Positions 5,601 to 64,000 of a DNA stretch of 64,000 nucleotides are shown piece by piece. Made by a program: the position numbers and the translations under genes. The notes beneath the pieces were generated by a model. That model was not told the origin of the DNA. It saw nothing but the letters and a program-made list of their open reading frames with translations, and did not search any database. Source of the stretch: an uncultured Azospirillaceae bacterium (lineage in GTDB: Bacteria > Pseudomonadota > Alphaproteobacteria > RF32 > CAG-239). Numbering within the stretch: position 1 is the stretch's first letter; the number at the start of each line of letters is the position of its first letter. The stretch covers positions 1,486 through 65,485 of the forward strand of contig CAYPFN010000004.1 of assembly GCA_964410325.1 (NCBI GenBank), read 5' to 3'.

Positions 5601-6070
5601 ATATAGACCTTGGGCGAGGCTCTTATGCCGCGTATGTTAAATTTGACGGACAGTTTCAAGTTTGGTTGGCAGAAGCTGATTTTATAGACCTCTCAACCGA
5701 TTGGCAAAAATGGACATACAGTCGCATTTGGGATTTACGGTTCGGACGCTTAGAAAGCGTCAATGGCATTAGCGATGTTGATAAGCTTGCCGATATCATG
5801 AGGATCTTTTTAAATACACCGTTTTATTCATCCGTGCCGGAACTTGAAAATCCTAAAAAATTGCTGGATTTGCAAATTATGGCTGAATATGACAACCAGA
5901 TAAAAATCAGTTTTTATAAATATGCTGAAAAGTTTTGGGTAAAATATGAGTTTGAACGTCCGGCGCAAGGAAAACATTTGCAATTTTATGAGCCTTATGT
6001 TATGGGGCGCTTTTTAGAAATTTCCGCAACGGATTGGGAACAGATAAAAAATGTCGCATGTTTTGACTGA
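2621..6070 (+). CDS. Fused ABC-2 family permease / GldG-like ABC auxiliary domain / DUF4340-like C-terminal domain (1149 aa)
   Basis: The N-terminal ~240 aa carry multiple hydrophobic helices (ABC-2 permease like GldF). The middle has a GldG-like periplasmic region followed by a TM anchor (FINIFALPLVLSLILLIFLWL). A long C-terminal soluble domain follows. Confidence 0.65.
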   Translation: MKGLWIVTKNELLRYFISPLAYVYLMSFLILNTAMAFYFGNFFERGQASLQVMFAFQPWLYLLFIPGISMRLWAEEFRTKTIVQIMTMPVSIEVLVWGKFLAAWLFCALALILTFPFWLTVNMLGAPDNAVIAVSYAGSFVLAGCMLAISQTMSALTKNQVIALVLSVAANLMFFWSGVEFILSFFRLFLPDYMIDAIASFSFLTHFSSITGGLLELRDVLFFASIVILFNFTTVLIVSFRTAGTSSWLKSTNRPYYISAWIMLVLGFMGFNLLANNLTRGTQIDFSEDAIYTLNKDTVMTLQNLTEPVTAKLYYSTILEQRNPIMRQMFDKIRQLLAQYKTHSNGRFDYRIYHPQNLDNVEDRAIADGIQPIPLIDINQNALFGLTVTDTLQNKNVIPYFTPARMAFLEQDLTSLIYQLGREKKTVAVLSTLPINGGGTDSMILQPWEITRQIGMFYNVRYIQKPEDLDDHPDVLILIHPQNIGSGMAEAIKKYSQNYGNILLLLDGAAEAPRLYSSVNLPFQASNLNGLDEFWGIRFYNEYVVADLDNSITVDATSNYKNNPAFTQDIIQFKLKKENFNPKHPVSKNLQSMLMSSVSVIMPISRDIEFIPLMQASNNSSLMPIKVVYDGLNPRQVLTYFQADDNPKILAAAIHGKKPDNQFNMIVVGDTDFIYDNFWVTSQTILERTFFIPLFNNADFILNSLDYLTNNRDLLELRGKSARSREFSDIEKLRKQNVFLYKIKEEKIFTRMNNVKNQLQEIWSKRDFEEREIFTADELALISSIRKQLEELRQELSNIRLQANRDISQIAAKIKFINIFALPLVLSLILLIFLWLKKDKRTYGTPLKFNRALLKLFLTAVAVLSAGIASVYFSNLSDIQKYEDKPLFPKLPEQINQMQSIIIKNNKHSLHFINDKGIWKIEEHSDFPVFQERIRSFLSALIEARFYEKKSDKAENLALFGLQPIEVENSPNTRIELLNTDSNPILSFEVGKYNIDLGRGSYAAYVKFDGQFQVWLAEADFIDLSTDWQKWTYSRIWDLRFGRLESVNGISDVDKLADIMRIFLNTPFYSSVPELENPKKLLDLQIMAEYDNQIKISFYKYAEKFWVKYEFERPAQGKHLQFYEPYVMGRFLEISATDWEQIKNVACFD

Positions 6071-6105
6071 ACATTATAATCGACTTAAAAAACGGCGACA
6101 TATAA

Positions 6106-6282
6106 ATACATTTAGAACTTGATGGTAAATTAACGCTTAATAAAGCGTATGAACTGACGGATATGGTAGAAGACAAAATCAAGACAGTTTTTCCTGACGA
6201 GCAAGTGATTATTCATCATGATCCTTACAGACCACATGAAAATCGGCTGAATTACACCATTGAAGGCAAGCGCGGTTTTTAA
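6106..6282 (+). pseudogene. Remnant of a cation diffusion facilitator (CDF) transporter, C-terminal ~55 codons only, with no start codon
   Basis: The stop-to-stop frame translates to LDGKLTLNKAYELTDMVEDKIKTVFPDEQVIIHHDPYRPHE.., which resembles the CDF cytoplasmic C-terminal domain (..L.v.eaH.i.d.ie..i...fp....v.iH.eP). No upstream in-frame start or TM region is present. Confidence 0.4.
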
Positions 6283-6623
6283 ATACAGCGTTCAAATTTA
6301 TAAAGATTAAACACGTATAAATCAACTCTATTTTGGTTTTAGCGGCTGGTTTGCCGCTATAAACAAAGCCATCTTGCAAAATCGGCTATTATAGAGCTGA
6401 TAAAATTACTGGCGAATATGAATACTAGAAATTTCATTAATCCTTAGAAAAAGTCCTCAAGGATTTTTTCTTTTTTTATTATTTATCCAAATTTCTCCTA
6501 ACGGCGTATTTAACCAGCACCTGACCAAAGTTTTCCCACTATTTGAAATAATATCCCAGATCCTCGTCACTTTTCCAAACATCACTCGTATAATGTCAAT
6601 AATTTTCCCATTAATACACTAAA

Positions 6624-6649
6624 AGCTCCTTAATTAGAATTAAGGAGCT
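6624..6649 (-). terminator. Hairpin terminator downstream of the 136-aa ORF
   Basis: 10-bp perfect inverted repeat with a 6-nt loop, followed on the minus strand by TTTT. Confidence 0.45.
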
Positions 6650-6650
6650 T

Positions 6651-7061
6651 TCAGCCAAGTCTTAAAAACGGGCGGGTATAAGCATGTTGGCTTTCTTCTA
6701 TATATATTTCCCGTCCCGACGAAAAATCTAACCCTTGACGTATGTCAAAATCTACCTTCGTTCGACCCCAATATTTATTCTTGTGCAGGGGCGGAAGATT
6801 TAACATTGTCAAGGTTTGATCAACCTCTTCCCTGTAATCAAGCAATATTTGCAGTTGCTTGCTATTAGGGATAACCCAGTACAAATTGCCAATATCCAGT
6901 TCATAGCACATTTTACTGGCTTCTCTCCAACGTAATTTCGGCAAATCTTTAACATATACCGCAACCTCATCTCCTTTGAGGAAAATGGCTACTGGTTGAG
7001 AATTTTCAAGATATCGAGATTCGCCATTTTCGTACAAAACCATTAAAGGTAATTTATCCAT
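6651..7061 (-). CDS. Hypothetical protein (136 aa)
   Basis: Clean ORF with a perfect 10-bp hairpin (agctccttaa/ttaaggagct) immediately downstream at 6624-6649. No recognisable motif. Confidence 0.45.
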   Translation of the reverse strand: MDKLPLMVLYENGESRYLENSQPVAIFLKGDEVAVYVKDLPKLRWREASKMCYELDIGNLYWVIPNSKQLQILLDYREEVDQTLTMLNLPPLHKNKYWGRTKVDFDIRQGLDFSSGREIYIEESQHAYTRPFLRLG

Positions 7062-58482: not shown

Positions 58483-59562
58483 ATGTCTTTAAATTTCATA
58501 TTTGGCGTTTTGTTAATATGTGTCGGGTTTGTTTGTTCTCGGGTGATTTTAAATTTTTTACGTATGGACGGTGGTGAAATCAGAGAATATACTTTTCTAA
58601 AAGATCCGTGGCTATATATCTTTTTTTTGACAGGCGTCGGCTTATTGGCGATTTTTTTTCTGATGCCGAATTTTAATGATGTTGTTGTTCCTTTAACAAT
58701 TACTCCGTTGGGGGTGTTGTTGGGGTTATCGCTACTTATTTATGTAGTTTTTTTATTAGAAGAGGATTGGCTGTTTTATTTAGTTTTGGCCGGCGCAAGT
58801 CTGGTTTTGGCTTTTATGATTCCCGATGAAGTATTACTTTTTGAGGGTTTAGTGCCTTTGTGGGTTGATAGGTTGATTGTTGCGGCTGCGGTATTTATAT
58901 TTACGAGTTTAGCTCAATGGTTGAATGGTTTGCCCAACATTTTTACCATTCAGTGCCTGACAATTACAATTGGTTTGTTTGTTATGGCTTTGGTTGGCGG
59001 TGTTTCGCAAATTTTAGGATTTGCCGGCGCTTGTTTGGCTGGAGTATGGTTGGGATTATTCAATTTAAATCAAATTTCTGGAACGGGTATACTGAATAAC
59101 GGCGCATGCGCAGCGGCGGCGTTTGTTTTTTCAGGCTTGTTGATTGATGGTGCTCTGGAGATGGCCGGACCGTCAATGGTGATTTTGATAATGTATGCGT
59201 TATCTGAGGGAATGTGGAGCATTGTCTGCCGGTATATTTTAGGAATAAAACGACTGGATTGGTCAGATAATACGACCTATATGTCTGTGGCCGATAAAGG
59301 AGCGTCAATAGACGCCATAAACACGGCTGTTATTAAAATAGGGCTGGTTAATGTCATGTTAGCCGGTTTCCAGCTTTTTGCCGTTAACGCCTTTTCAATT
59401 CCCTTGTTTGCTTTGGCTGTTAATTTGTGGCTCCTTAGCATGTTATATAATGCGGATAACAAAAAACAATCTTTGAGGGAAGTTAACCGAGATTTTGTCA
59501 GCAATATCAAAGAAGAGCTGAAAGAGATCCAACAATCATTCAGGAAAGGCAAAGGTCGGTAA
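58483..59562 (+). CDS. Polytopic membrane protein, hypothetical (359 aa)
   Basis: 8+ hydrophobic helices. Its start abuts the rsmB stop. Confidence 0.45.
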   Translation: MSLNFIFGVLLICVGFVCSRVILNFLRMDGGEIREYTFLKDPWLYIFFLTGVGLLAIFFLMPNFNDVVVPLTITPLGVLLGLSLLIYVVFLLEEDWLFYLVLAGASLVLAFMIPDEVLLFEGLVPLWVDRLIVAAAVFIFTSLAQWLNGLPNIFTIQCLTITIGLFVMALVGGVSQILGFAGACLAGVWLGLFNLNQISGTGILNNGACAAAAFVFSGLLIDGALEMAGPSMVILIMYALSEGMWSIVCRYILGIKRLDWSDNTTYMSVADKGASIDAINTAVIKIGLVNVMLAGFQLFAVNAFSIPLFALAVNLWLLSMLYNADNKKQSLREVNRDFVSNIKEELKEIQQSFRKGKGR

Positions 59563-60902
59563 TGTTTTTTACAGGACTTAAAAATTTATTTAATAGTTCT
59601 GCGTTGGAAGTTGCTGTTCCGGAAAAAAGGCGGATAAAGGTTGTTGTGGCTGCTTTTGCAGATGATTGTCCGGAAAATTCGGGAAAAATTTTAGCGCAGT
59701 ATCTGTCCGGATTAGATTTTTTGGCCGTAAAATATTATGAAAATCCGTTAGGAAGAGATTTTGTTAATCTTAACAGTCGGAATTTTTTTGATTTTATTGA
59801 TTTAGGAAGACAAATTATCAACGTAACGGAAGCGGATGTCCTTATATGGGGGAATCGGGAACAAGATAGAATTCGTTTGAATTTTCAAATCTTGCGTCAA
59901 TACGAGAAGCAAGATTTGCCGTTTTTTTCTTTGTTGAATAATTTGTATCTTCCGCTGTCGTATCTTCAGGAGAGAAATTTTCCAACATCTATGCAGTTTT
60001 TAATTGGAGGCGTTATTGTGGCGGTGGCTGATTTGAAAAACCACCGGGAACAAAAAGAGAAACTAGCAGAAATTTTGGATAAAATCGGCCGAGAGCACTC
60101 TCCCAGAGGATTAGAAGTTTTTTACATGCCGTATATTTTAAATATTTTGGCGCTGATTTATTTGTGCTCAAAAGCTGAAGAATTAAAATTGTCAGACGTG
60201 AAAATTGTTTCGGATTTATGGGCAAAAGCCTACAAAAGCCTGTCGGCAGGTAAAGATTTGCTTTTAAGCGGCAATATATATGCTGGTTTGGGGCAGCTGT
60301 ATCAATTGGCAGCGGAGAATCTGCAGCGGAATAAATATATTTTTTATAAAAACGCCGCCGAATGTTATCGATATGCGCAAAAATGTTTCAGTCGCCATTC
60401 CTATCCGTATGATTTTGGTATTTTATCTTATCTGCTTTCAAAAGTTTATTACGGATACTGGAAACAATCTTCAGATGTTCAGGCACTGCGTGATTCTGTA
60501 TTTCACCTTCGGGAAGCAGAAAAGTTTTTTTCAAAAGCTTCATTCCCTTATTTTTGGGCGGATATTCAGGGAGATTTAGGCTTATATCTATCGTTATTGG
60601 GCTTGTTTGGGCGCAATGATGAAATTTCTATGTTGGCTGTTGAAAATTATAAAAATCGCCAGAGAATTTATACGCGGGAACAATGGCCTTTGGAATGGGC
60701 AAAGGCTGAAGAAAGCATCGGTAATATTTTTTATAATTCAGGCAAAAGGTTTGATGACGAGGAGTATTTGGAAGAGGCTATAAAATATTATGCTGAAGCA
60801 GCGGATATATATGAAAATAACCGTTTGAGCACGGAATTAAAACAAACGCAGATTTGCATTGCCAAAGCAGATGAACATATTATGCAGCTTAACCGGAAAT
60901 AA
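59562..60902 (+). CDS. Hypothetical soluble protein with TPR-like repeats (446 aa)
   Basis: Its start overlaps the preceding stop by 1 nt (TAATG). The C-terminal half has repeated A/Y-rich helical pairs. Confidence 0.45.
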   Translation: MFFTGLKNLFNSSALEVAVPEKRRIKVVVAAFADDCPENSGKILAQYLSGLDFLAVKYYENPLGRDFVNLNSRNFFDFIDLGRQIINVTEADVLIWGNREQDRIRLNFQILRQYEKQDLPFFSLLNNLYLPLSYLQERNFPTSMQFLIGGVIVAVADLKNHREQKEKLAEILDKIGREHSPRGLEVFYMPYILNILALIYLCSKAEELKLSDVKIVSDLWAKAYKSLSAGKDLLLSGNIYAGLGQLYQLAAENLQRNKYIFYKNAAECYRYAQKCFSRHSYPYDFGILSYLLSKVYYGYWKQSSDVQALRDSVFHLREAEKFFSKASFPYFWADIQGDLGLYLSLLGLFGRNDEISMLAVENYKNRQRIYTREQWPLEWAKAEESIGNIFYNSGKRFDDEEYLEEAIKYYAEAADIYENNRLSTELKQTQICIAKADEHIMQLNRK

Positions 60903-60948
60903 TGCTTGCATAAAGTTTAATTTTATTTTATGAAATAAACCGATATTG

Positions 60949-61041
60949 GGAGAGATGGCAGAGCGGTTGAATGCGGTTGACTCGAAATCAATTGTACTCT
61001 TTAACGGGGTACCTAGGGTTCGAATCCCTATCTCTCCGCCA
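60949..61041 (+). tRNA. tRNA-Ser (anticodon CGA)
   Basis: GGAGAGATGGCAGAGCGGTTGAATGCGGTTGACTCGAAATCAATTG..long arm..TAGGGTTCGAATCCCTATCTCTCCGCCA. Closely parallels the E. coli tRNA-Ser(CGA) layout. Confidence 0.8.
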
Positions 61042-61047
61042 TTAAGC

Positions 61048-61076
61048 AAAACCCCGCACAAGGCGGGGTTTTGCTT
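61048..61076. terminator. Bidirectional hairpin terminator
   Basis: aaaaccccgcacaaggcggggttttg. Confidence 0.55.
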
Positions 61077-61087
61077 TGCGATTTAAG

Positions 61088-62314
61088 TTATTTTTTTGTT
61101 TCAGCGTGGTAATCAATATGGCAGTCTTTGCATAACATTATGCAGTTTTCTATGGTTGTTTCGCCACCGTCAGCAAAAGCTTTTTTATGATGGCCTTCCA
61201 GGTCTTTCAAGGCAAAATTTTTGCCACAGCGGGCGCATTTGCCACCTTGCCTTTCATAGGCTTGTTTTTGTTGATGTTCGCTAAAAGCTCGATGCCAAAT
61301 CAGCGTTCTGTCATCAGATAGGCAATATTCATAAAAGCCTTTCTTTTTCAAGCCGTCGGGGTCGATATCATAAAGCTCATATAAATGGTTAAGTTTTTCG
61401 GCAATCTGCGCCGAATTAAAACTTTTATGATGATATTTATTGTACAAAATTCCCCAATCAAGGCCTTTCATATCCGTGCGATAAGTGATAAACGTGTGTT
61501 TAACCCATGAAATAACATTTTTGAAATAATCAATAAGTTCACCAGCGTCATTGTCAAAACGGTGCTTGCCCATATAATCTTTAATTTGCGGATATTCCGC
61601 CGGTTGCGCATCAATTCGCCAGCCAAGAGCAAGTTCCAACAGCAGTTGTCGGTTTGCTTTATCGCCGAGTCCGCCCATATCGCCCAGGGTTTTATCCGCC
61701 GACAGGCTAAGCAAGGTTTTTTTGTCGTCATTGTCGTAATAAGAAATGGCAATCGCTTCATTGTTATTTTTCTTAGAGAAAAACTGTTTCGCTGCCGTCA
61801 GCCACTGACCGGTATAATTAGCATTAAGAAGTTCCTGATTGGTCATTTGTTTACCGGCAATGTTAATGGTGTGAAACCAATCCAACTTCTCATCATCTGT
61901 CCCTTCGCAGACGTAAACTTGTAGCCGATAATCCAAAATTTCTTTCTGTTTATCAGGGGTGAGACCTTCAAAAGTTTGCGTATTTCTGCCGTTAAAGTCA
62001 ATGGCAATAGGGTTGCCGTATCCGTCATCATTGGTGATAAACTGGCAGATAGAAATCAGACGTTGCTGTCCGTCAATAACCTCGAAAGTTCCGTCCGGAT
62101 TGACAGCCCAATACATACTGTTCAATGGCATGTTGTTATATACCGAGAGCATCACCCGATCCCTGTCATCGGGATTATAGACGAACGCCCGCTGATACGC
62201 CGGACGAACATTAAGTTTCCCGCCAAAAGCCACCACGCCTTGCTCGCCTTTATCCAAATAGCCGCCCACTAAATCTCTGATAGTAATAACTGGCTGAGTC
62301 GTTTTCATTGTCAT
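61088..62314 (-). CDS. DUF262 (ParB/Srx-like, DGQQR motif) - HNH endonuclease fusion protein; predicted restriction/defence nuclease
   Basis: 408 aa. N-terminal ..FEVIDGQQRLISICQF.. is the DUF262 hallmark. C-terminal GGKCARCG...EGHHKKAFADGG...NCIMLCKDCHIDYH is the classical HNH pattern (CxxC...HH...N...CxxCH). Confidence 0.7.
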   Translation of the reverse strand: MTMKTTQPVITIRDLVGGYLDKGEQGVVAFGGKLNVRPAYQRAFVYNPDDRDRVMLSVYNNMPLNSMYWAVNPDGTFEVIDGQQRLISICQFITNDDGYGNPIAIDFNGRNTQTFEGLTPDKQKEILDYRLQVYVCEGTDDEKLDWFHTINIAGKQMTNQELLNANYTGQWLTAAKQFFSKKNNNEAIAISYYDNDDKKTLLSLSADKTLGDMGGLGDKANRQLLLELALGWRIDAQPAEYPQIKDYMGKHRFDNDAGELIDYFKNVISWVKHTFITYRTDMKGLDWGILYNKYHHKSFNSAQIAEKLNHLYELYDIDPDGLKKKGFYEYCLSDDRTLIWHRAFSEHQQKQAYERQGGKCARCGKNFALKDLEGHHKKAFADGGETTIENCIMLCKDCHIDYHAETKK

Positions 62315-62315
62315 A

Positions 62316-63437
62316 TCAGTTCTCCTTTTTCTTAATCAAAATACGAGCATATGCAGAATAAACACATTCGTGGGTCAAAGGGTGGATATAATAATTTCCT
62401 TTTGATGATTTTCCTAATAAAACAGGATTTCCTCGTGTCTTTCGTCCGCTCGCATTAGTATAAGTGCCGTCTTGTCTAATTTCTTTAAAATCATCATACT
62501 CCCGTATTGCAGGAATTCCGGCCAATATTTCATCACTTGAATTTAAAAGACCGATAATGTTAAATTGTTTGGGATTATATTTATCCAAAAAGGTTATCGG
62601 CACCCCCATCGCCCCGATATAATCCATCGGGATGTCGCTGACCTTATCAACATTAATGGCGTCGTAATTGTCATATTTGGGATACATTTCTTCATAGCCG
62701 TAATATTTTTTGCCGGTATTAATTACCTCAATTCTTCGGCTATTTTCCAAATTTGTATACCAGCTGACATTACCAAAGTTCTTAACTAAACCGTCTGGCT
62801 TGTAAAACTGCTTAACATGATGTAACCCACACCAAAACTTATTTTCTTTTATCAACGGAAAAATTTCTTTATAGGTGCGACAGTTATCATTGCCGATAAT
62901 TAAAAATTTTTTATTGTACTGTATAAGCTGCGCCACATATTCGCGAAATAGAGAAAACGGTGGGTTGGTTATTACGATATCCGCTTGTTTTAACAGCGCA
63001 ATACATTCTTCACTTCTAAAATCGCCGTTTCCTTTGAGCGGGATTTCTGTAATATCTTCAAAGCAAGCGATTTTGTCGCCGGTATTGTCCTTATCCAAAA
63101 TATACATAGAAGAGTTTTTTTTATCTTTCTCGTAGTGGGTGGCTATAACTTTTTTGATTTTAAATGCCTCAAAATTATCCGCCAGATATTTCAAAAAATT
63201 TGACTTTGGCGTTCCCAGGCCGATGCCGTTATGGTCATCGCAGTTGCAATAAATCACCTTGCCTTTGAAATATTTGGCATAATTGGACAGTTCTTTTTTG
63301 ATATCTTCGTATGTGGTATAAAATTCGTCATTCTTAGCATTTTTTGCTCTCTTTAAGTTCTTGTGTCCCATTGTCAAAACTCCCAACAAAAAATCGCCTT
63401 TGGTGCAAAAGGCGACTGGAAGTTCGAAGCTACTCAT
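62316..63437 (-). CDS. DNA methyltransferase, NPPF motif (N6-adenine or N4-cytosine; EcoRI-methylase-like family by recollection)
   Basis: 373 aa. IVITNPPFSLFREY is catalytic motif IV. N-terminal DEFYTTYEDI and VIYCNCDD segments are present. The stop is 1 nt from the nuclease start, implying an operon. Confidence 0.65.
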   Translation of the reverse strand: MSSFELPVAFCTKGDFLLGVLTMGHKNLKRAKNAKNDEFYTTYEDIKKELSNYAKYFKGKVIYCNCDDHNGIGLGTPKSNFLKYLADNFEAFKIKKVIATHYEKDKKNSSMYILDKDNTGDKIACFEDITEIPLKGNGDFRSEECIALLKQADIVITNPPFSLFREYVAQLIQYNKKFLIIGNDNCRTYKEIFPLIKENKFWCGLHHVKQFYKPDGLVKNFGNVSWYTNLENSRRIEVINTGKKYYGYEEMYPKYDNYDAINVDKVSDIPMDYIGAMGVPITFLDKYNPKQFNIIGLLNSSDEILAGIPAIREYDDFKEIRQDGTYTNASGRKTRGNPVLLGKSSKGNYYIHPLTHECVYSAYARILIKKKEN

Positions 63438-63559
63438 TGGAAAGTAGTGGGCATATTAATTTAAACAAGATAAAAGCAAACGCTTATCCCTTGATATAAA
63501 CATATTAGCCTCCTTCCAGTCGGACGACCAGAAGGAGTTTTTTACGCCAATGATAATTG

Positions 63560-63625
63560 GCAACCAATGATGAGGCTTCGAACCCTCGGGGCAGACACCA
63601 ACCTGCCTTAAAAGCAAGGTTAAAC
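63560..63625 (-). repeat. tRNA-like fragment (T-arm/acceptor-like GGGTTCGAAGCC...TTGCCA) flanking the MTase-nuclease module
   Basis: The reverse complement reads GGCAGGTTGGTGTCTGCC CCGAGGGTTCGAAGCCTCATCATTGGTTGCCA. A T-loop consensus is present, but no full cloverleaf could be folded. Confidence 0.3.
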
Positions 63626-63791
63626 GATAAGAAATAAAATGCAAGAAATTTTTTGAACGGCATTTCGAAAAACAAATTTAGATTTTATAATTTTATTAAA
63701 AAATTAATAAAATTCGTATTAATAATGAACTCGGGATATTGTTTATTCGTTATTTTATTTGTGACAGAAAATTAATTATCGAGATTAAAAA

Positions 63792-64000
63792 ATGATACAA
63801 GTTGTTAATTATATAAAAAGCAGGAAAAAATTTGTCGTTTACGGTGTTTTGCTGTTGGGCGCTTTAGGGGCTTGGAAATATTTTCACAAAGTTGATGAAA
63901 TTTCTTATATCACAGACACTGTGCGACGTCAGGATATTGAAAAGGTGGTTAATGCTGCCGGTGAGGTGCGGGCAAGCGAATTGGTTACCGTTGGTGCTCA
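63792..64000 (+). CDS. HlyD/MacA-family periplasmic adaptor (membrane fusion protein), N-terminal part; continues beyond window
   Basis: MIQVVNYIKSRKKFVVYGVLLLGALGAWKYF...YITDTVRRQDIEKVVNAAGEVRASELVTVGA. A TM anchor followed by the typical 'V.r.di...v.a.G.v.a...v.V' adaptor start. Confidence 0.55.
   Translation, partial: MIQVVNYIKSRKKFVVYGVLLLGALGAWKYFHKVDEISYITDTVRRQDIEKVVNAAGEVRASELVTVGA

Follow-up and report, generated by a model that had tools for sequence, protein, structure and literature searches.

A DUF262-HNH protein encoded beside an EcoRI-family adenine methyltransferase: a candidate Type II-like restriction-modification cassette in an uncultured alphaproteobacterium

Is a nuclease that carries both a DUF262 domain and a classical HNH domain the restriction partner of the DNA methyltransferase encoded next to it? 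This question is raised by a locus in a stretch of 64,000 nucleotides (hereafter the window) from an uncultured Azospirillaceae bacterium (assembly GCA_964410325.1, contig CAYPFN010000004.1, positions 1,486 to 65,485). On the minus strand of the window, an open reading frame (ORF) at 61088-62314 encodes the DUF262-HNH protein, and it is preceded by the gene of an EcoRI-family N6-adenine DNA methyltransferase. The two genes probably constitute a Type II-like restriction-modification (R-M) unit, in which the DUF262-HNH protein would be the restriction endonuclease and the nucleoside triphosphate (NTP) pocket of its DUF262 domain would serve as a switch. The probability that we assign to this reading, which is drawn from the sequence, is about 0.75.

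The nuclease gene and the parts of its product are as follows.

61088-62314, minus strand: candidate DUF262-HNH restriction endonuclease; an ORF with an ATG start, 408 amino acids, assigned by Pfam, PADLOC, alignment and model
61775-62314, minus strand: N-terminal ParB/Srx-like DUF262 domain, approximately residues 1-180, including QR 41-42, DGQQR 81-85 and N151...Q160-E161
62060-62074, minus strand: DGQQR motif, residues 81-85
61280-61774, minus strand: central all-helical region, approximately residues 181-345, from the secondary structure of the model
61103-61237, minus strand: C-terminal zinc-type HNH (ββα-Me) nuclease domain, residues 360-404, with the pattern CxxC...HH...N...CxxCH

In a preliminary description of this locus, the ORF had been read as an N-terminal DUF262 domain with a DGQQR motif, followed by a C-terminal zinc-finger HNH domain. 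Both domains were recovered by the Pfam profiles, well above the curated cut-offs. GmrSD_N/DUF262 (PF03235) matched residues 36-167 (E 4.4e-20; 73 bits, cutoff 33), and HNH (PF01844) matched residues 360-404 (E 1.8e-12; 48 bits, cutoff 21); PF14279 was reported as well. The residues of the latter domain are laid out as C360-x2-C363 ... H375 H376 ... N390 ... C395-x2-C398-H399, in agreement with the CxxC...HH...CxxCH pattern described before. The domain has the ββα-metal core, the catalytic His, the structural Asn and the two Cys pairs of the HNH/His-Me finger nucleases. In the same scan, neither a match to PF07510 (DUF1524) nor a motor or helicase domain was found in the 408-residue protein. 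The PADLOC model REase_II (PDLC03418) matched residues 3-399 over profile positions 1-366 of 372 (E 3e-89).

The conservation of these motifs was evaluated on an alignment of 127 family members having 32-81% identity to the query. Its source was a HMMER search run exhaustively over 1.84 billion representatives, which gave 273 clusters (50% identity) at E<1e-30. Seven residues, Gln41, Arg42, Gly82, Arg85, Asn151, Gln160 and Glu161, are invariant in this alignment. Asp81, Gln83, Gln84, Cys360, Cys363, His376, Asn390 and Cys395 are kept in at least 90% of the sequences. The AlphaFold2 model calculated on this alignment had a mean predicted local distance difference test (pLDDT) value of 92 and a predicted template-modelling (pTM) score of 0.84. 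It consists of three parts: an α/β N-domain (approximately residues 1-180), an all-helical middle (approximately residues 181-345) and a C-terminal ββα HNH domain. The most variable and indel-rich stretch in the conservation profile, residues 181-220, lies inside the helical middle. SspE and DndI were among the structural neighbours of the model in the fold search. No solved structure spans the protein: PDB sequence and fold searches gave no match to the nuclease as a whole, and the central helical region has no recognisable relative among the solved structures.

The gene upstream is described by one line.

62316-63371, minus strand: EcoRI-family N6-adenine DNA methyltransferase, 351 amino acids, assigned by PF13651 and PADLOC; start taken from homologue lengths and alignment

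The match to EcoRI_methylase (PF13651) covers the whole profile (1-345 of 345, E 6e-104), which places the protein in the EcoRI methyltransferase family over its full length. The PADLOC model MTase_II (PDLC03297) also matches it (E 6e-101), and the catalytic motif NPPF is found at residues 136-139 of the 351-residue protein. The start is most probably the ATG at 63371, and not the first ATG of the ORF at 63437, because the homologues are 344-351 residues long and the 22 extra codons would overlap the leader and terminator hairpin (63437-63388) described below. A GGGAG ribosome-binding site (63384-63380) precedes the ATG at 63371. Near the C-terminus of this otherwise well-conserved enzyme is a hypervariable, indel-rich insert (approximately residues 281-340; 62352-62547) with about 5% identity to the query. 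Its length in the relatives is 15-85 residues, and it differs even in cassettes with 84% DNA identity on both flanks.

The two genes are tightly coupled. Only one base separates the TGA of the methyltransferase gene (62318-62316) from the ATG of the nuclease gene (62314-62312) on the same strand. The latter is provided with an AGGAG ribosome-binding site 7 nt upstream of the ATG, and a promoter scan found no promoter-like site between the two genes. This arrangement bears out the co-transcription that had been suggested for them.

The coupling is not peculiar to this genome. A tblastn search with the window methyltransferase was carried out against 87 loci of nuclease relatives, four of which are cut off at a contig end. 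An EcoRI-family methyltransferase gene was found upstream and on the same strand in all of the others (83 of 83 loci with enough upstream DNA), directly adjacent in most of them. The linked loci cover Alphaproteobacteria, Bacteroidota, Bacillota, Patescibacteria, Actinomycetota, Acidobacteriota and one Nitrosopumilus genome. The same gene order is seen on plasmids of Actinomycetota, Bacillota, Pseudomonadota and Bacteroidota, and in RefSeq plasmids of Mammaliicoccus sciuri, Lactiplantibacillus pentosus and Sulfitobacter indolifex the two genes overlap. The view that the nuclease is the partner of the methyltransferase, which had been put forward from the window alone, is strongly supported by these loci, and the methyltransferase seems to be its true partner.

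Strict conservation of a gene pair in this order, with translational coupling, is what marks a toxic nuclease accompanied by a methyltransferase that protects against it. At the gene level, the locus has what a Type II R-M system has, that is, a separate methyltransferase with an intact motif and an adjacent nuclease of a recognised restriction endonuclease family. It would therefore function like a Type II system, a class assignment made from the genes and the PADLOC models.

We infer a mechanism in which unmethylated DNA is cleaved, methylation gives protection, an NTP acts as a switch and the leader regulates expression. The methyltransferase (γ-class, NPPF) would mark adenines in a recognition sequence of the host DNA. 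The translationally coupled DUF262-HNH protein encoded downstream would cut DNA without this mark by means of the ββα-metal site of its HNH domain. Most likely, the DUF262 domain would bind or hydrolyse a nucleotide and act as the switch that licenses the HNH domain, as in BrxU and SspE. The order with the methyltransferase first, together with the tight coupling, would put protection ahead of restriction. In this lineage the operon is probably transcribed through a leader RNA that ends in a terminator, and its expression would then be low or conditional.

The proposed nucleotide switch, like the modification sensing suggested earlier, is drawn from the conservation of the DUF262 signature residues. 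The NTP pocket of GmrSD, BrxU and SspE is made up by the DGQQR motif; binding or hydrolysis of NTP changes the conformation and activates the nuclease (PMC10952713). In these three enzymes the nucleotide-driven change is one of oligomeric state or conformation (PMC10952713; Machnicka et al., PMC4619093). NTP gating of the HNH domain is plausible by comparison with these enzymes. Since the DUF262 signature residues are invariant, a nucleotide-dependent switch might have been retained; between this and a purely DNA-binding role of the domain, the odds seem to be about even.

Several observations weigh against the NTP-switched R-M reading. Searches of the literature found no biochemistry of any family member, and searches of the PDB were likewise negative. 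Public databases name the proteins only "DUF262 domain-containing protein", "HNH endonuclease" or "McrA", the last being used by JGI for some of them. The PADLOC model may be founded on a characterised enzyme or on REBASE predictions. The conserved residues of DUF262 could serve DNA binding instead of nucleotide binding. Furthermore, GAATTC, CAATTG, AATT and GGCATC all occur at expectation in the 64-kb window, that is, without avoidance, and no segment of the nuclease co-varies with the methyltransferase insert in partial Mantel tests on 79 methyltransferase-nuclease pairs.

As for the last of these results, the insert and the variable nuclease residues 181-220 showed a correlation of about 0 (p 0.6). 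The only nominal coupling was to nuclease residues 299-322, and with r 0.06 (p 0.025) it is not strong enough to be of use. GAATTC, for which 13 sites were observed against 16.8 expected, occurs once inside the methyltransferase gene itself.

The recognition sequence was approached through S. indolifex, for whose plasmid gene pair the authors suggest a possible novel R-M system (PMC9025767); this is the only paper found on the pair. In this organism GAATTC is unmethylated, and a strain-specific N6-methyladenine (m6A) motif, GGCATC, is unassigned (PMC9025767). The S. indolifex methyltransferase is 48% identical to that of the window over 300 residues, and the C-terminal parts of the two do not align. 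GAATTC is an unlikely specificity for the window enzyme, because it is unmethylated in an organism whose methyltransferase is 48% identical. Nor would the GGCATC motif be transferable to the window, because the C-terminal parts of the enzymes do not align.

The same motif leads to a bolder proposal, which takes several of these features together and which we regard as unlikely. The family would then form a distinct NTP-gated restriction class, in which the methyltransferase marks one strand of an asymmetric site, an idea for which GGCATC in S. indolifex is the lead. A ParB-like nucleotide switch, for instance a dimer-to-monomer change or clamp-like sliding, would allow communication between sites or license cutting. 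The problem of hemimethylation would be solved as in Type III systems, albeit without a helicase-like motor, and in the present lineage a new riboswitch-like leader would control the operon.

It should be mentioned that two other sequences are strongly under-represented in the whole window relative to a Markov expectation. GATC has 77 sites where 215 are expected (ratio 0.36), and GGCC has 101 where 196 are expected (ratio 0.51). Restriction systems with GATC and GGCC specificity, having nothing to do with the cassette, may accordingly have been present in the history of the host lineage.

Among the alternatives, a plain NTP-independent Type II HNH enzyme survives best, though we consider it rather doubtful. 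In such a KpnI-like enzyme, Mg2+ would be the only cofactor and DUF262 would be a module for DNA binding, recognition or dimerisation. KpnI, Hpy99I and PacI are HNH enzymes, and these classical Type II systems likewise consist of two genes, one for a methyltransferase and one for an HNH endonuclease. M.EcoRI, in turn, belongs to the family of the window methyltransferase (PF13651 over the full length), and PADLOC puts both window genes in Type II. ParB-fold domains bind DNA, PADLOC files the nuclease family under Type II restriction endonucleases, and the nuclease is small, without a motor or helicase domain. The mean pairwise identity of about 0.62 in nuclease residues 1-180 across phyla also fits one shared recognition sequence. 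However, the residues that never change (QR, DGQQR and N...QE) are those of the nucleotide pocket of BrxU, SspE and GmrSD (PMC10952713), and strict conservation of this kind, among sequences of 32-81% identity, is met more often in a catalytic or ligand site than in a surface that reads DNA. Neither the literature nor the PDB yielded a characterised Type II enzyme with a DUF262 domain.

Less probable still is a sensor of the SspE type. Here the DUF262 domain would read the m6A of the host as a licensing signal and would activate nicking or cleavage by the HNH domain of nearby or unmodified invader DNA; the nuclease alone would be inactive and non-toxic. The DUF262 domains of GmrSD, BrxU, SspE and probably Dazbog sense modified DNA, and in SspE the phosphorothioate mark of the host stimulates the NTPase and activates the nuclease (PMC10952713). 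SspE and DndI being structural neighbours of the model is in line with this proposal, and the obligate pairing with a methyltransferase fits it as well as it fits the classical model. On the other hand, coupled or overlapping genes with the methyltransferase first are the classical arrangement of a toxic nuclease and its antidote, and sensing of m6A by any DUF262 domain is without direct evidence. In addition, there are homologues that lack the HNH domain: P0076 and P0099 (83% identity; 22 member sequences in P0099) are about 284-314 residues long. A nuclease that imposes a cost, and that is inactivated now and then in a persisting cassette, would be expected to leave such homologues. SspE and DndI themselves (PDB 6jiv and 9jfl) rely on backbone phosphorothioation by the multi-gene Ssp or Dnd machinery, whereas a single adenine methyltransferase is present here, and their nuclease domain and size are also different.

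It is very improbable that the locus consists of a stand-alone Type IV nuclease of the GmrSD kind and a functionally unrelated orphan adenine methyltransferase placed next to it by chance. DUF262 is, it is true, best known from Type IV enzymes (PMC10952713; PMC4619093), and JGI names some members "McrA". However, a methyltransferase of one family is co-located on the same strand at 83 of 83 loci across phyla, the spacing here is 1 nt, and the cassette travels as a unit. Moreover, a nuclease that attacks modified DNA could not be combined with a modifying enzyme expressed alongside it, except where the two differ in specificity.

Comparison with known systems leads in the same direction. GmrSD and BrxU (Type IV; PDB 7p9k) share the N-terminal DUF262 domain with DGQQR, but their nuclease domain is a DUF1524 with (D/E)H...N...N, whereas the window protein has the classical zinc HNH (PF01844) with its CxxC/CxxC site and is the shorter one by about 170 residues. 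The targets of GmrSD and BrxU are modified cytosines, and these enzymes stand alone, whereas the present nuclease is always paired with a methyltransferase. Having no DUF1524 domain and not standing alone, it is not, by its domains and gene context, a member of the GmrSD family. EcoKMcrA (PDB 6ghc) is also unlike it, being modification dependent, with an N-terminal domain that reads 5-methylcytosine and without a methyltransferase partner. A purely modification-dependent (Type IV) reading of the nuclease seems unlikely, because the cognate methyltransferase is always present.

Two PADLOC matches to other defence systems, NsnA of Menshen (E 4e-25) and PD-T4-2_A (E 1e-14), are confined to residues 32-203, i.e., to the DUF262 part. 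Menshen and PD-T4-2 have other partner genes, an OLD-family nuclease in the case of Menshen (PMC10952713), and have no HNH domain. No such partners are found at this locus, where the nuclease gene has the methyltransferase gene, a tRNA gene and unrelated genes as its neighbours. Because the matches are restricted to the DUF262 domain, the locus is judged to be neither Menshen nor PD-T4-2.

The family to which the nuclease belongs is large. More than 5500 homologues were found, all of which have both PF03235 and PF01844. The preliminary description had regarded DUF262 joined to a classical HNH domain, instead of DUF1524, as unusual; the pairing is real, as the lack of PF07510 confirms, but it is not rare, and a PADLOC model for it exists. 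At least 547 species genomes contain a relative of the nuclease in a scan of one genome per species. They include genomes of Alphaproteobacteria, Bacteroidota, Bacillota, Patescibacteria, Actinomycetota, Acidobacteriota and Spirochaetes, together with one Nitrosopumilus metagenome-assembled genome (MAG). Among the matches listed, the closest cassettes are those of gut and rumen alphaproteobacterial MAGs and of "Candidatus Enterousia". To judge from the cassette alone, the window comes probably from an uncultured alphaproteobacterium that lives in association with a host. Many plasmids, those of Staphylococcus and Lactobacillaceae among them, also carry the family. In phages it is rare, with four full-length matches in 50,697 records. 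To judge from these searches, the locus is an ordinary member of a large, widespread and already catalogued two-gene R-M family. As a separate observation, the predicted folds in BFVD of DUF262 proteins of 360-385 residues from the giant viruses Indivirus, Hokovirus and Catovirus align with the whole model, with TM scores up to 0.53-0.55 but no more than 13-15% identity.

As a single locus, then, the present one carries little weight: it adds another copy to a common kind of mobile R-M cassette that is already known to the defence-annotation tools, and a restriction specialist would not be surprised by it. The family is of more interest, since it joins a nucleotide-binding sensor domain of the Type IV kind to a classical HNH domain under the protection of an adenine methyltransferase. 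A characterised member would show what DUF262 does where the enzyme must avoid, and not seek, modified DNA. The role of DUF262 in an enzyme blocked by methylation is an easily testable question, and such work might also provide a new specificity or a nuclease that can be controlled by NTP.

The limits of the cassette were defined by the following features.

61088-63652, minus strand: the cassette, 2.56 kb, read from 63652 to 61088
60949-61041, plus strand: tRNA-Ser(CGA)
61044-61076: inverted repeat with perfect 14-bp arms, AAGCAAAACCCCGC/GCGGGGTTTTGCTT, in the interval from the tRNA-Ser 3' end to the nuclease stop codon

In BLASTN comparisons with four relatives (L004, L005, L008 and L011), the homology extends from 63652 to 61088, stopping at 61088-61091, with 68-85% identity inside these limits and none outside. 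In the window, the cassette is flanked by tRNA-Ser(CGA) on one side and by a divergently transcribed gene starting near 63792 on the other. The 14-bp inverted repeat is likely to be a bidirectional terminator that marks the downstream edge. In L004, the same cassette is located between the fructose-bisphosphate aldolase gene (fba) and infC, and in L006, L008 and L095 it is found in yet other contexts, the copies having 77-85% nucleotide identity. Since the genomic contexts differ among the relatives, the cassette is considered to be a horizontally mobile, self-contained two-gene unit. A repeat search found no direct repeats flanking it.

In another alphaproteobacterial lineage (L006/L007), the methyltransferase-nuclease pair has an IS200/IS605-type Y1 transposase gene as its neighbour and a zeta-toxin gene not far away (138-587 and 5775-6686), which is a mobile-element or defence neighbourhood. 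A controller (C) protein was also sought in the cassette and rejected: there is no helix-turn-helix ORF, and in the relatives 1-nt indels disrupt the small ORFs at 63456-63675.

The remaining part of the cassette, upstream of the methyltransferase gene, is occupied by a leader.

63617-63645, minus strand: promoter-like element CTTGCA (63645-63640), 17-nt spacer, TAACCT (63622-63617), some 8 nt upstream of the point where conservation of the leader begins
63388-63608, minus strand: structured leader RNA, approximately 220 nt with nine helices, from conservation, folding and covariation
63388-63417, minus strand: terminator-like hairpin (63417-63394) and T6 run (63393-63388), at the 3' end of the leader, 3 nt before the GGGAG ribosome-binding site
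Leader copies in relatives: L004:4734-4950, L008:3755-3968, L011:3819-4018, L088:542-764, L095:10839-11053, L099:9833-10040, L101:10483-10695 (minus strand), L089:4580-4779 and L090:5315-5514 (minus strand)

The leader is nearly invariant in cassettes whose coding DNA is only 68-85% identical. It is not coding, because its copies differ by 1-nt indels. Its folding energy was -91.9 kcal/mol, with a z-score of -6.2 against shuffled sequences. On ten full-length copies, RNAalifold predicted nine helices, in which 11 base pairs show compensatory double changes; for example, GUUCGAAGC/GCUUCGAAC is changed into CUGAAAAC/GUUUUCAG. In the leader alignment 97.7% of the cells are paired, and the covariation was 0.213, compared with 0.097 for shuffles (reached by 0 of 500) and at most 0.061 for slid partners. 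All of the aligned copies keep the CTTGC box and its spacing, L090 having CTTGCG-N17-CTATTC. The element CTTGCA-N17-TAACCT, which was not reported by an E. coli-type promoter scan, is presumably of the alphaproteobacterial σ70-type consensus.

No Rfam family matched at E<=1 over 60500-64000; on the 301-nt leader stretch the best hit was PyrR, whose 24.9 bits (E 0.17) fall short of the gathering score of 54. When metagenomes were scanned with a 19-mer that is invariant in the leader, 16 matches were obtained, of which seven were genuine new copies. The other nine were rejected as chance matches, their flanks being unrelated to the leader and seven of them sharing one other repeated sequence. 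The 19-mer was not found in viral contigs.

Seven full-length copies, and an eighth cut at a contig end (L102), precede a methyltransferase gene, and for L099 the contig ends before any downstream gene. The copies in L089 and L090 precede the gene of an outer-membrane β-barrel protein (PF13505, E 6e-21) and not an R-M operon. Because these two copies head a β-barrel gene, the leader is regarded as a portable promoter-leader module that is not specific to R-M. In L088 (526-1044), the leader is followed by a methyltransferase ORF of only about 100 residues, which breaks off into the gene of an unrelated ABC-F ATPase; a nuclease gene is absent. Either the cassette has decayed or the metagenome contig is chimeric.

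The position of the terminator before the ribosome-binding site of the methyltransferase gene means that transcription of the operon from the leader promoter must read through it. The strand GACUGGAAG of an invariant hairpin (63521-63513) is a perfect 9-nt complement of CUUCCAGUC (63422-63414) on the 5' side of the terminator stem. Pairing of GACUGGAAG with CUUCCAGUC as an antiterminator is only a possibility; when the alternative fold was forced, it was 16 kcal/mol worse than the minimum free energy structure. The leader might be a riboswitch, an attenuator that depends on a protein, or a 5' untranslated region that has a stabilising effect. It is a candidate for a new, previously undescribed cis-regulatory RNA of gut Alphaproteobacteria. 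As a well-supported structured RNA without an Rfam entry, it seems to be placed so as to gate the transcription of a toxic operon.

Neither ARAGORN nor Rfam found a tRNA in the leader. There is 81% complementarity between a T-arm-like segment of it, GGGTTCGAAGCC (63569-63589), and the T-arm of tRNA-Ser(CGA) (61012-61032, plus strand), and the two form inverted repeats that bracket the cassette. The segment was considered as a tRNA remnant or attachment (att) site. In other copies, however, GGGTTCGAAGCC is replaced by GGACTGAAAACC with compensatory changes, and the resemblance was judged to be a coincidence.

Immediately upstream of tRNA-Ser, two adjoining ORFs on the plus strand, 58483-59562 and 59562-60902, gave no significant Pfam match. 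The product of the former (359 residues) looks like a multi-pass membrane protein, and that of the latter (446 residues) has a weak SNAP/TPR-like similarity (E 0.0015, below the cutoff).

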